64,000 bases of DNA. Origin: Escherichia coli. GTDB taxonomy: Bacteria; Pseudomonadota; Gammaproteobacteria; Enterobacterales; Enterobacteriaceae. A program made the position numbers and the translations under genes. Below, in pieces: positions 11,593-15,375 of this stretch (position 1 is the first letter of the stretch; every line of letters begins with the position of its first letter). The DNA lies in assembly GCF_003334335.1 (NCBI RefSeq), contig NZ_QOWQ01000013.1; one strand, given 5' to 3'. The notes beneath the pieces were generated by a model, which did not search any database, was not told the origin of the DNA, and saw only the letters and a list, made by a program, of their open reading frames with translations.

Positions 11593-11630
11593 GAAAAAAA
11601 AGCCCGCACTGTCAGGTGCGGGCTTTTTTC
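11593..11630 (-). terminator. thr attenuator (leader terminator)
   Basis: minus-strand AGCCCGCACCTGACAGTGCGGGCT hairpin followed by T8 between thrL and thrA. Confidence 0.85.
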
Positions 11631-11647
11631 TGTGTTTCCTGTACGCG

Positions 11648-11716
<69 letters not shown>

Positions 11717-11926: not shown

Positions 11927-12613
11927 TTATTTGGTGATATTTTTTTCAATATCATGCAGCAAACGGTGCAACATTGCCGTGTCTCGTTGCTCTAAAAGCC
12001 CCAGGCGTTGCTGTAACCAGTCGACCAGTTTTATGTCATCTGCCACTGCCAGAGTCGTCAGCAATGCCATGACTCGTTCGCGTAAAGCTTGCAGCTGATG
12101 TTGGTCTGCCGTTGTGTCACTTTTCGTCGGTTGTTGTATTAATGTTGCTAATTGATAGCAATAGACCATCACTGCCTGCCCCAGATTGAGCGAAGGATAA
12201 TCCGCCACCATCGGCACACCAGTAAGAACGTCAGCCAACGCTAACTCTTCGTTAGTCAGCCCGGAATCTTCGCGACCAAACACCAGCGCGGCATGGCTCA
12301 TCCATGAAGATTTTTCCTCTAACAGCGGCACCAGTTCTACTGGCGTTGCGTAGTAATGATATTTCGCCCGACTGCGCGCAGTGGTGGCGACAGTGAAATC
12401 GACATCGTGTAACGATTCAACCAGTGTCGGGAAAACTTTAATATTATCAATAATATCACCAGATCCATGTGCGACCCAGCGAGTGGCTGGCTCCAGATGT
12501 GCCTGACTATCGACAATCCGCAGTTCGCTAAACCCCATCGTTTTCATTGCCCGCGCCGCTGCCCCAATATTTTCTGCTCTGGCGGGTGCGACCAGAATAA
12601 TCGTTATACGCAT
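11927..12613 (-). CDS. yjtD: SpoU/TrmH-family RNA methyltransferase YjtD (LasT)
   Basis: ORF 11927..12634 trimmed to MRITIILVAPARAENIGAAARAMKTMGF (228 aa). Confidence 0.85.
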   Translation of the reverse strand: MRITIILVAPARAENIGAAARAMKTMGFSELRIVDSQAHLEPATRWVAHGSGDIIDNIKVFPTLVESLHDVDFTVATTARSRAKYHYYATPVELVPLLEEKSSWMSHAALVFGREDSGLTNEELALADVLTGVPMVADYPSLNLGQAVMVYCYQLATLIQQPTKSDTTADQHQLQALRERVMALLTTLAVADDIKLVDWLQQRLGLLEQRDTAMLHRLLHDIEKNITK

Positions 12614-12957
12614 ATTGCCACTCTTCTTGACCAAATGACCGCGAACAGGGTGATCACTGTCAACTTATTACGCGGTGCGAATTTACAAATCCTTAACGTA
12701 AGTCGCAGAAAAAGCCCTTTACTTAGCTTAAAAAAGGCTAAACTATTTCCTGACTGTACTAACGGTTGAATTGTTAAAAAATGCTACATATCCTTCTGTT
12801 TACTTAGGATAATTTTATAAAAAATAAATCTCGACAATTGGATTCACCACGTTTATTAGTTGTATGATGCAACTAGTTGGATTATTAAAATAATGTGACG
12901 AAAGCTAGCATTTAGATACGATGATTTCATCAAACTGTTAACGTGCTACAATTGAAC

Positions 12958-12971
12958 TTGATATATGTCAA
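12958..12971. promoter_or_regulatory. FNR-like half-palindrome in arcA upstream regulatory region
   Basis: TTGATATATGTCAA resembles TTGAT-N4-ATCAA; lies in AT-rich region upstream of arcA. Confidence 0.3.
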
Positions 12972-13012
12972 CGAAGCGTAGTTTTATTGGGTGTCCGGCC
13001 CCTCTTAGCCTG

Positions 13013-13153
13013 TTATGTTGCTGTTAAAATGGTTAGGATGACAGCCGTTTTTGACACTGTCGGGTCCTGAGGGAAAGTACCCACGACCAAGCTAATGATG
13101 TTGTTGACGTTGATGGAAAGTGCATCAAGAACGCAATTACGTACTTTAGTCAT
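13013..13153 (-). CDS. yjjY: small protein YjjY (46 aa)
   Basis: hand-translated minus-strand ORF MTKVRNCVLDALSINVNNIISLVVGTFPQDPTVSKTAVILTILTAT; below ORF-track size cutoff. Confidence 0.6.
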   Translation of the reverse strand: MTKVRNCVLDALSINVNNIISLVVGTFPQDPTVSKTAVILTILTAT

Positions 13154-13248
13154 GTTACGCCGATCATGTTAATTTGCAGCATGCATCAGGCAGGTCAGGG
13201 ACTTTTGTACTTCCTGTTTCGATTTAGTTGGCAATTTAGGTAGCAAAC

Positions 13249-13965
13249 ATGCAGACCCCGCACATTCTTATCGTTGAAGACGAGTTGGTAACACGCAACA
13301 CGTTGAAAAGTATTTTCGAAGCGGAAGGCTATGATGTTTTCGAAGCGACAGATGGCGCGGAAATGCATCAGATCCTCTCTGAATATGACATCAACCTGGT
13401 GATCATGGATATCAATCTGCCGGGTAAGAACGGTCTTCTGTTAGCGCGTGAACTGCGCGAGCAGGCGAATGTTGCGTTGATGTTCCTGACTGGCCGTGAC
13501 AACGAAGTCGATAAAATTCTCGGCCTCGAAATCGGTGCAGATGACTACATCACCAAACCGTTCAACCCGCGTGAACTGACGATTCGTGCACGCAACCTGC
13601 TGTCCCGTACCATGAATCTGGGTACTGTCAGCGAAGAACGTCGTAGCGTTGAAAGCTACAAGTTCAATGGTTGGGAACTGGACATCAACAGCCGTTCGTT
13701 GATCGGCCCTGATGGCGAGCAGTACAAGCTGCCGCGCAGCGAGTTCCGCGCCATGCTTCACTTCTGTGAAAACCCAGGCAAAATTCAGTCTCGTGCTGAA
13801 CTGCTGAAGAAAATGACCGGCCGTGAGCTGAAACCGCACGACCGTACTGTAGACGTGACGATCCGCCGTATTCGTAAACATTTCGAATCTACGCCGGATA
13901 CGCCGGAAATCATCGCCACCATTCACGGTGAAGGTTATCGCTTCTGCGGTGATCTGGAAGATTAA
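13249..13965 (+). CDS. arcA: aerobic respiration control response regulator ArcA
   Basis: 238-aa [33 protein letters not shown]...; OmpR-family receiver plus winged helix. Confidence 0.97.
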
Positions 13966-13982
13966 TCGGCGTTACCACCGTC

Positions 13983-14017
13983 AAAAAAAATGGCGCTTTT
14001 TAGCGCCGTTTTTTTTT
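13983..14017. terminator. bidirectional terminator between arcA and creD
   Basis: A8-ggcgc-ttttta-gcgcc-T9 hairpin flanked by A and T runs. Confidence 0.6.
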
Positions 14018-14022
14018 CAACC

Positions 14023-15375
14023 TTATTTCCAGATACGTAATTCATCGTCCGTTGTAACTTCTTTATTGGCTTTCATTTTCGGCAGTGAAAACGCATACCA
14101 GTCGATATTACGGGTCACAAACATCATTCCGGCCAGCGCCACCACCAGCACACTGGTTCCCAACAACAGCGCGCTATCGGCAGAGTTGAGTAGTCCCCAC
14201 ATCACACCATCCAGCAACAACAGCGCGAGGGTAAACAACATGCTGTTGCGCCAGCCTTTCAATACCGCCTGCAAATAAATACCGTTCATTAACGCCCCAA
14301 TCAGACTGGCGATTATCCATGCCCCGGTAAAACCGGTATGTTCAGAAAGCGCCAGCAAGAGCAAATAAAACATCACTAATGAAAGCCCCACCAGTAAATA
14401 TTGCATTGGGTGTAAACGTTGCGCGGTGAGCGTTTCAAAAACAAAGAACGCCATAAAAGTCAGCGCAATCAGCAGAATAGCGTACTTAGTCGCCCGGTCA
14501 GTTAATTGGTATTGATCGGCTGGCGTCGTCACTGCGACGCTAAACGCGGGGAAGTTTTCCCAGCCGGTATCATTGCCTGAAGCAAAACGCTCACCGAGAT
14601 TATTAGCAAACCAGCTGCTTTGCCATTGCGCCTGAAAACCTGACTCGCTAACTTCCCGTTTGGCTGGCAAAAAATCACCTAAAAAACTGGGATGCGGCCA
14701 GTTGCTGGTTAAGGTCATTTCGCTATTACGCCCGGCAGGCACCACAGAAAGATCGCCGGTACCGCTTAAATTCAGGGCCATATTCAGCTTCAGGTTCTGC
14801 TTCCGCCAGTCCCCTTCGGGTAAAGGGATATGCACGCCCTGCCCGCCTTGCTCTAACCCGGTGCCGGGTTCAATGGTCAGCGCCGTTCCGTTAACTTCAG
14901 GCGCTTTCACCACACCAATACCACGCGCATCCCCGACGCTAATCACAATAAATGGCTTGCCTAAGGTGATATTTGGCGCGTCGAGTTCGCTAAGACGCGA
15001 AACATCGAAATCGGCTTTTAGCGTTAAATCACTGTGCCAGACCTGACCGGTATAAATCCCTATCTTGCGTTCTTCCACGTTCTGATTACCATCAACCATC
15101 AATGACTCAGGTAACCAAAAATGGATAAAACTTCGTTTCCGCTCCACGGTTTTATCGTCTTCCTGCACCGTATAAAGCTCGGTCACAGGAATAGCGATGA
15201 GCGGCCCAACGAGTTTTTGCGGCCCGCTGGTACTTTGCCGAATCGCATCTTCCACATCGCTACGGTAATCGGCACGTTCGACAATCACCTGCCGAATCAG
15301 CATTATCGGAATCAACAACAGCAATACTGCACCAAACAGGGTGGTCATTTTCCAGAACAGGGGGGATTTCAACAT
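14023..15375 (-). CDS. creD: inner membrane protein CreD
   Basis: 450-aa ORF; cre operon synteny. Confidence 0.9.
   Translation of the reverse strand: MLKSPLFWKMTTLFGAVLLLLIPIMLIRQVIVERADYRSDVEDAIRQSTSGPQKLVGPLIAIPVTELYTVQEDDKTVERKRSFIHFWLPESLMVDGNQNVEERKIGIYTGQVWHSDLTLKADFDVSRLSELDAPNITLGKPFIVISVGDARGIGVVKAPEVNGTALTIEPGTGLEQGGQGVHIPLPEGDWRKQNLKLNMALNLSGTGDLSVVPAGRNSEMTLTSNWPHPSFLGDFLPAKREVSESGFQAQWQSSWFANNLGERFASGNDTGWENFPAFSVAVTTPADQYQLTDRATKYAILLIALTFMAFFVFETLTAQRLHPMQYLLVGLSLVMFYLLLLALSEHTGFTGAWIIASLIGALMNGIYLQAVLKGWRNSMLFTLALLLLDGVMWGLLNSADSALLLGTSVLVVALAGMMFVTRNIDWYAFSLPKMKANKEVTTDDELRIWK

Follow-up and report, generated by a model that had tools for sequence, protein, structure and literature searches.

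In enteric bacteria, the switch between aerobic and anaerobic growth has two master regulators; ArcA is one, and its own level is physiologically relevant. At most native FNR-activated promoters, the FNR site lies at -41.5 (class II). The control of the arcA level has been studied at its own locus since 1994. According to a review (PMC5748706) that summarizes the work of Compan and Touati 1994, five sigma-70 promoters are found in the 530-bp non-coding region upstream of arcA, and Fnr, from a single box at -284, activates one of them while repressing another. Fnr-dependent anaerobic activation of arcA is also ascribed to Compan and Touati in such secondary accounts. Citing the same authors, the Reg-Seq supplement places a transcription start site (TSS), presented as 'one of many', at K-12 position 4640508. 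The FNR box, the multiple promoters and a connection of yjjY phenotypes with arcA have all been published before. Our additions are modest and come from sequence comparison: the small ORF yjjY lacks a coding signature, the FNR box and the core promoter keep a fixed phasing, and the arcA leader may be structured.

The DNA analysed here is a stretch of 64,000 nucleotides (the window) that belongs to Escherichia coli. K-12 coordinates were converted as U00096.3 position = 4640306 + (13249 - w), w being the window position; for U00096.2 the base is 4638329. The RefSeq gene order is yjtD, yjjY, arcA and creD, and the locus was laid out as follows:

11593-11712, minus strand: thr leader, followed by thrA (Rfam RF00506).
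11927-12613, minus strand: yjtD, whose coding region ends at 12613.
12614-13248, no strand assigned: yjtD-arcA intergenic region, the arcA regulatory region (635 bp, AT-rich; from the ORFs and the annotation).
13249-13965, plus strand: arcA (ORF).
14023-15375, minus strand: creD, convergent with arcA.

The intergenic region was 100% identical over its 635 bp to that of strain E2865 and was present, at 98-100% identity, in 5424 of the 5426 complete E. coli genomes. An earlier note, made from the sequence alone, had described about 600 bp of AT-rich DNA preceding arcA. This description holds, with a GC content of 38.6% for 12614-13248 (31% for 12700-12957) against 51.9% for the whole 64-kb window, and only 0.95% of 609-bp windows were equally AT-rich (lowest 1%); the start coordinate that the note had given, 12640, was arbitrary. 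The thr operon leader upstream of thrA is a full-length RF00506 match (121 bits), which indicates that the window spans the conventional K-12 map origin in reverse orientation. On the other side, the gap between arcA and creD (13966-14022) carries a GC-rich hairpin between A-runs and T-runs (aaaaaaaatggcgctttttagcgccgttttttttt) that resembles a bidirectional intrinsic terminator; weak Rfam matches in this gap (PrrB/RsmZ and Histone3) were below threshold. The arcA upstream region is also a target of insertion sequences (around 12916 and at 12998): in strain IAL7255 it is interrupted near 12916, beside an integrase-core gene, and an IS186 insertion from a laboratory evolution experiment falls between the FNR box and the core promoter, at position 12998.

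The earlier note had placed an FNR-like motif at the 3′ side of yjjY. The motif is there, 42 bp past the yjjY stop codon:

12958-12971, no strand assigned: FNR box TTGATATATGTCAA, with its centre 284.5 bp upstream of the ATG of arcA and 82.5 bp upstream of the TSS (13047).

This sequence fits the 14-bp inverted repeat TTGAT-N4-ATCAA at 9 of 10 positions. The window contained five matches with one mismatch, with 2.65 expected, and at least five were found in 11 of 100 shuffles. The motif match alone is not beyond chance, and the reality of the site rests on its conservation and on published ChIP data. Myers 2013 reported an FNR ChIP-seq/ChIP-chip peak at 4638594-4638600 (window 12978-12984) and a predicted site TTGACATATATCAA at 4638607 (window 12971), which is the TTGATATATGTCAA motif read on the other strand, with a score of 14.83 bits. 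The published peak sits on the motif. Reg-Seq (2020) described an activator footprint from -99 to -63 (window 12948-12984) that was confined to low oxygen; by mass spectrometry, FNR was identified on the arcA promoter DNA. The same study located a CpxR footprint from -64 to -56 (window 12983-12991), and an IHF ChIP peak (window 12726-13123) overlaps the FNR box. The published data establish that FNR binds at 12958-12971 in vivo, while its effect is condition-dependent and disputed: Myers 2013 found no FNR effect on arcA in glucose minimal medium and, contrary to this, Reg-Seq 2020 reported FNR-dependent activation of an arcA promoter from the 12958-12971 site.

In order to compare the region among bacteria, arcA upstream sequences were collected by three routes: a search with the ArcA protein (Citrobacter, Photorhabdus, Vibrio, Haemophilus and Shewanella), look-ups of exact YjjY variants and a DNA-pattern scan of metagenomes. 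Around eight true arcA loci were present among the matches listed by the protein search, the rest being mostly unrelated response regulators. The enterobacterial set comprised 73 distinct sequences, 47 of them at least 89% identical to E. coli over 383 nt and 26 at 53-72%. The FNR box was found in loci reached through the ArcA protein, namely in Citrobacter, in Photorhabdus as TTGATGTACGTCAA and in Vibrio as a perfect TTGATATAAATCAA. Earlier comparative genomics had predicted Fnr control of arcA in Yersinia and the Vibrionaceae. As a side observation, the arcA upstream region of Haemophilus haemolyticus (positions 1660-2000 of locus L004) has TTGTTTTTTATCAA at -268, which is a weaker match to the FNR site, as well as a TGTTACAACAATGTTA repeat whose distance is not the same. 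Conserved sites upstream of arcA had not been found in the Pasteurellaceae by a comparative study of 2007.

Besides the FNR box, the comparison outlined the following promoter elements:

12944-12952, plus strand: extended -10 TGcTACAAT of an inferred upstream arcA promoter, with a predicted start around 12959, under the FNR box.
12972-13010, plus strand: spacer between the FNR box and the core promoter, 39 nt, fixed in length, with 12995-13008 hypervariable.
13011-13026, plus strand: direct repeat TGTTA-N6-TGTTA, at -36 to -21 relative to the TSS at 13047, holding the yjjY stop codon.
13034-13039, plus strand: -10 hexamer TAGGAT of the reported FNR-activated TSS at 13047 (K-12 4640508; Reg-Seq supplement).

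The extended -10, the FNR box, the TGTTA repeat and TAGGAT were conserved across the Enterobacterales. Since the extended -10 and the FNR half-sites were part of the pattern by which most of the comparative sequences had been retrieved, the conservation of those bases is circular within the set, but all four elements were also present in sequences found independently of the search pattern. TGcTACAAT was conserved in Citrobacter, Siccibacter and Photorhabdus and appeared as TGtTACATT in Vibrio, and TAGGAT, which lies seven bases before the TSS at 13047, was nearly invariant in the 73 sequences. A generic sigma-70 scan returned no plus-strand promoter match at all. The note had read the region as one with multiple arcA promoters under anaerobic control. 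This reading is supported by published work, as far as the secondary sources relate it: five promoters and an Fnr box at -284 had been described, the latter agreeing with the measured centre at 284.5 bp, and the TSS given in the Reg-Seq supplement falls inside the interval, at 13047.

In 74 of 77 sequences, exactly 39 nt separated the FNR box from the TGTTA repeat; in Vibrio (L008) the distance was 29 nt, shorter by one helical turn. Despite this fixed length, positions 12995-13008 of the spacer formed the most variable stretch of the whole region. The fixed gap, together with its shortening by one turn in Vibrio, is an argument for FNR acting on the downstream promoter from a constant helical face. 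FNR centred 82.5 bp upstream of the TSS at 13047 would activate in the manner of a class I activator. To our knowledge, no native FNR promoter has its site at -82.5, a position that is unusual for FNR. We also considered a class II promoter, with the site at -41.5 and a start around 13006, and rejected it because the expected -10 (12993-12998) coincides with the most variable stretch. On the upstream side, FNR bound at 12958-12971 would cover positions +1 to +13 of the predicted TGcTACAAT promoter and could thereby block it, and this promoter would fit the one reported to be repressed by FNR. Blocking and activation from one box would match the dual role described for the single Fnr box. We infer this pairing of promoters with FNR effects from secondary sources and from our reading of the -10 elements.

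Alternatively, the FNR box might be bound without controlling arcA, either serving the divergent yjtD/lasT or being a silent site. In line with this, Reg-Seq mentions that the evidence for the site was graded as low in EcoCyc, and the IHF peak overlaps it. We consider this alternative highly improbable, given that 345 bp separate the box from the start codon of yjtD and that its distance to the arcA core promoter is kept exactly (39 nt, 29 nt in Vibrio). Moreover, the Reg-Seq reporter of an arcA promoter responded to mutations in the box at low oxygen only, a pull-down on this DNA recovered FNR, and Fnr-dependent anaerobic activation is attributed to Compan and Touati in the secondary accounts. 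We retain the control of arcA by the FNR box as the preferred reading. The conservation of the box as far as Vibrio and its fixed helical phase provide sequence-based support for FNR acting on arcA, which bears on the disagreement between the genome-scale studies.

A published site of ArcA itself also falls within the interval of the earlier note:

12657-12699, minus strand: ArcA-P site made up of three direct repeats and attributed to yjtD (4638879-4638921 in Tables S1 and S4 of Park 2013).

The ArcA ChIP-seq peak centres of Park 2013, 4638845/52, correspond to window 12726-12733, near this distal site, which differs from K-12 by one SNP (window AAGGATTTG, K-12 AAGAATTTG). Closer to arcA, the repeat TGTTATGTTGCTGTTA at 13011-13026 was the only match to TGTTA-N6-TGTTA in the 64 kb, with 0.11 expected, and was conserved across the Enterobacterales and in Vibrio. 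The ArcA ChIP peak lists of Park 2013 contain none at 13011-13026. Being similar to an ArcA box, the repeat could mediate ArcA autoregulation at the core promoter, although it may owe its conservation to its place in the promoter and not to ArcA.

The small ORF that the earlier note had seen embedded in this region, on the minus strand and with 46 codons, is the yjjY annotated by RefSeq:

13013-13153, minus strand: yjjY ORF, 46 codons, antisense to the arcA core promoter and leader (RefSeq annotation).

As the note had stated, the ORF overlaps the arcA leader on the opposite strand, where it spans -34 to +107 relative to the TSS at 13047. Its stop codon lies inside the first TGTTA, and the C-terminal residues ILTILTAT are encoded by the reverse complement of the -35 to -10 region. 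The translation, MTKVRNCVLDALSINVNNIISLVVGTFPQDPTVSKTAVILTILTAT, matched the NCBIfam model NF052365 'YjjY' with 96.5 bits (cut-off 70, E = 7.8e-28). The existence of this curated equivalog model and the RefSeq annotation would favour yjjY being a genuine gene for a small, possibly membrane, protein, conserved across the Enterobacteriaceae for its function. The hydrophobic sequence, the high signal of the yjjY probe in arrays and the homologues with 83-100% identity in Klebsiella, Enterobacter, Salmonella, Raoultella and Siccibacter speak in the same direction. However, the substitution pattern did not resemble that of a coding sequence. The variable columns were distributed as 9:9:6 over codon positions 1:2:3, with no excess of change at third positions, and only 8 of 27 substitutions (30%) were synonymous, against a random expectation of 26% (binomial p = 0.66). 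In contrast, 338 of 378 substitutions (89%) were synonymous in arcA. The frame was intact in 37 of the 47 close lineages, a proportion comparable to that of arbitrary control ORFs of the same stretch, taken from both strands, four of which survived in 34-45 of 47 lineages and the fifth in 5. A frameshift rewrote the C-terminal half in 10 of the 47 close lineages, and GTG replaced ATG in nine. Among the 26 distant sequences, most had lost the start codon or carried stop codons, while the DNA blocks persisted.

No Shine-Dalgarno sequence was evident before the yjjY ATG, and the sigma-70 scan found no minus-strand promoter upstream of yjjY, its sole match on this strand being one that would start inside the ORF. 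Neither detection nor translation of the YjjY protein has been reported in the searchable literature, including small-protein surveys. In addition, two papers attributed the phenotypes of yjjY deletion or insertion to altered arcA expression, and the knockouts would indeed be expected to act by changing arcA expression. Taken together, a protein-coding origin of the conservation is very unlikely. The ORF looks like a by-product of regulatory DNA rather than a selected protein gene, and we conclude that it is conserved because the regulatory DNA is conserved. The lack of a protein-selection signature in yjjY and its NCBIfam family matters for the interpretation of the recurrent 'yjjY' matches in knockout and transposon screens.

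Transcription through yjjY could nevertheless have a role of its own. The dsRNA cluster S-383, obtained by p19 capture, spans window 12787-13208 and includes all of yjjY; according to the p19-capture paper, it was also present in an independent dsRNA pulldown. A cis-antisense RNA through yjjY might pair with the arcA leader, and cleavage by RNase III might tune ArcA, this being the main reason for the conservation. The candidate helices described below fit either strand equally (7 G-U against 5 A-C cells), which is uninformative as to the folding strand and leaves room for an antisense RNA. On the other hand, pervasive antisense transcription yields many clusters with no known function, and no minus-strand promoter was identified upstream of yjjY. 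Furthermore, any sequence pairs with its own complement, so pairing alone needs no conservation. Antisense pairing is unlikely as the main reason, although it could add to the preferred explanation, in which yjjY persists along with the regulatory DNA of arcA.

The conservation extends from the core promoter to the arcA start codon:

13047-13248, plus strand: arcA 5′ leader, 202 nt, strongly conserved, with the Shine-Dalgarno sequence AGGTAG at 13238-13243.
13110-13128, plus strand: candidate hairpin TTGATG-N7-CATCAA (RNAalifold), with G-C changed to A-U in six sequences.
13141-13151 with 13200-13210, plus strand: candidate long-range helix GTAC...AGTC/GACT...GTAC (RNAalifold and pair counts).
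13095-13172, plus strand: upstream ORF of 25 codons, antisense to yjjY, intact in 45 of 47 lineages.

Variability was counted in the 43 close sequences with a complete arcA. Variable columns amounted to 40 of 202 in the leader (13047-13248), 48 of 240 in 13009-13248 and 24 of 141 in yjjY, as compared with 209 of 238 arcA third positions. Variation in the approximately 240 bp ahead of the gene is therefore about four times rarer than at the third codon positions of arcA. Similarly, arcA third positions diverged from E. coli by 24-42% in pairwise comparisons, the leader by 0-8% and yjjY by 0-5%. This low variability and divergence indicate a constraint on the leader close to that on the first and second codon positions of arcA.

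We then looked for RNA structures behind this constraint. RNAalifold was run on 25 diverse sequences. In the long-range helix, which encloses a stretch variable in length and sequence, six of eight pairs were changed on both sides and 91-97% of cells were paired, compared with 28-57% in slid controls. When all 14 candidate pairs were considered, 94.9% of cells were paired (28-57% when slid), seven pairs were changed on both sides and none of 500 shuffles reached the observed values, it being noted that the structure comes from the same alignment as the covariation counts and that the independent events are few. The 13110-13128 hairpin was broken in Siccibacter. Single-sequence folds of either strand were no more stable than shuffled ones (MFE z = -0.13 and -0.63), and no Rfam family matched within 12614-13248, even at E up to 1. 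Weak Rfam matches to MicC, PrrB/RsmZ and the Leu leader were discarded as chance hits on terminators outside the intergenic region. A GGA in a hairpin loop had suggested CsrA binding there, an idea that we discarded since distant relatives do not keep the GGA. Overall, the covariation gives moderate support for a conserved helix in the leader.

Regarding translation within the leader, a RIBOSS preprint described that in Salmonella a small ORF opposite yjjY, upstream of arcA, is translated. A second upstream ORF of 25 codons (13166-13243, plus strand) stops 5 nt short of the arcA ATG, and its stop codon falls within the Shine-Dalgarno sequence AGGTAG. Codon-position bias was absent in both 25-codon ORFs (13095-13172 and 13166-13243). 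One tentative reading is that the leader of about 200 nt, including its yjjY part, constitutes a deeply conserved structured RNA element for post-transcriptional control of ArcA, made up of the long-range helix enclosing a variable hairpin, the upstream hairpin and possibly a translated uORF at 13095-13172. We regard this as possible, with the odds against it; no such function of the arcA leader has been described in the searchable literature. If it were true, yjjY should leave the protein catalogue.

Altogether, these results confirm the observation of the earlier note, which had read the region correctly, and support its interpretation. With high confidence, we consider this stretch an arcA control region with an FNR box of probable dual role, in which yjjY is a by-product ORF. 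Positions 12614-13248 are the regulatory region and long 5′ leader of arcA, the gene of a global redox response regulator. Transcription starts at several sites, spread over about 530 bp according to the published work, and the 202-nt leader, under strong constraint at the nucleotide level, may fold into a conserved helix.

Several known systems resemble this locus. The direct repeat at 13011-13026 shares with the ArcA-P boxes of Park et al. 2013 (e.g. those of lldP and kefG) the core and the 11-bp centre-to-centre spacing, whereas it overlaps a -35 region and has no reported ChIP peak. As in the fully overlapped small ORFs of dsRNA surveys, yjjY is fully overlapped by a transcript from the opposite strand, with dsRNA captured by p19; unlike those genes, it lacks protein-level selection, and the likeness may lie in the transcription pattern only. 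Regarding FNR, the arcA box shares with class I-type FNR promoters a 14-bp TTGAT-N4-ATCAA palindrome occupied in vivo and a distance to the core promoter that shifts by a whole helical turn (from 39 to 29 nt), and it overlaps the predicted upstream start, as in promoters that FNR represses over the start site. It differs from typical FNR-activated promoters in its position at -82.5 and in that its regulation went unseen in one genome-scale study. The closest system is the arcA promoter region of K-12 itself, the subject of Compan and Touati 1994 and of the FNR-arcA entries in EcoCyc and RegulonDB, from which this non-K-12 strain differs by a few SNPs and in nothing substantive: the locus is the same, with the TSS at 4640508 corresponding to window 13047, the box at -284 and several promoters within about 530 bp.
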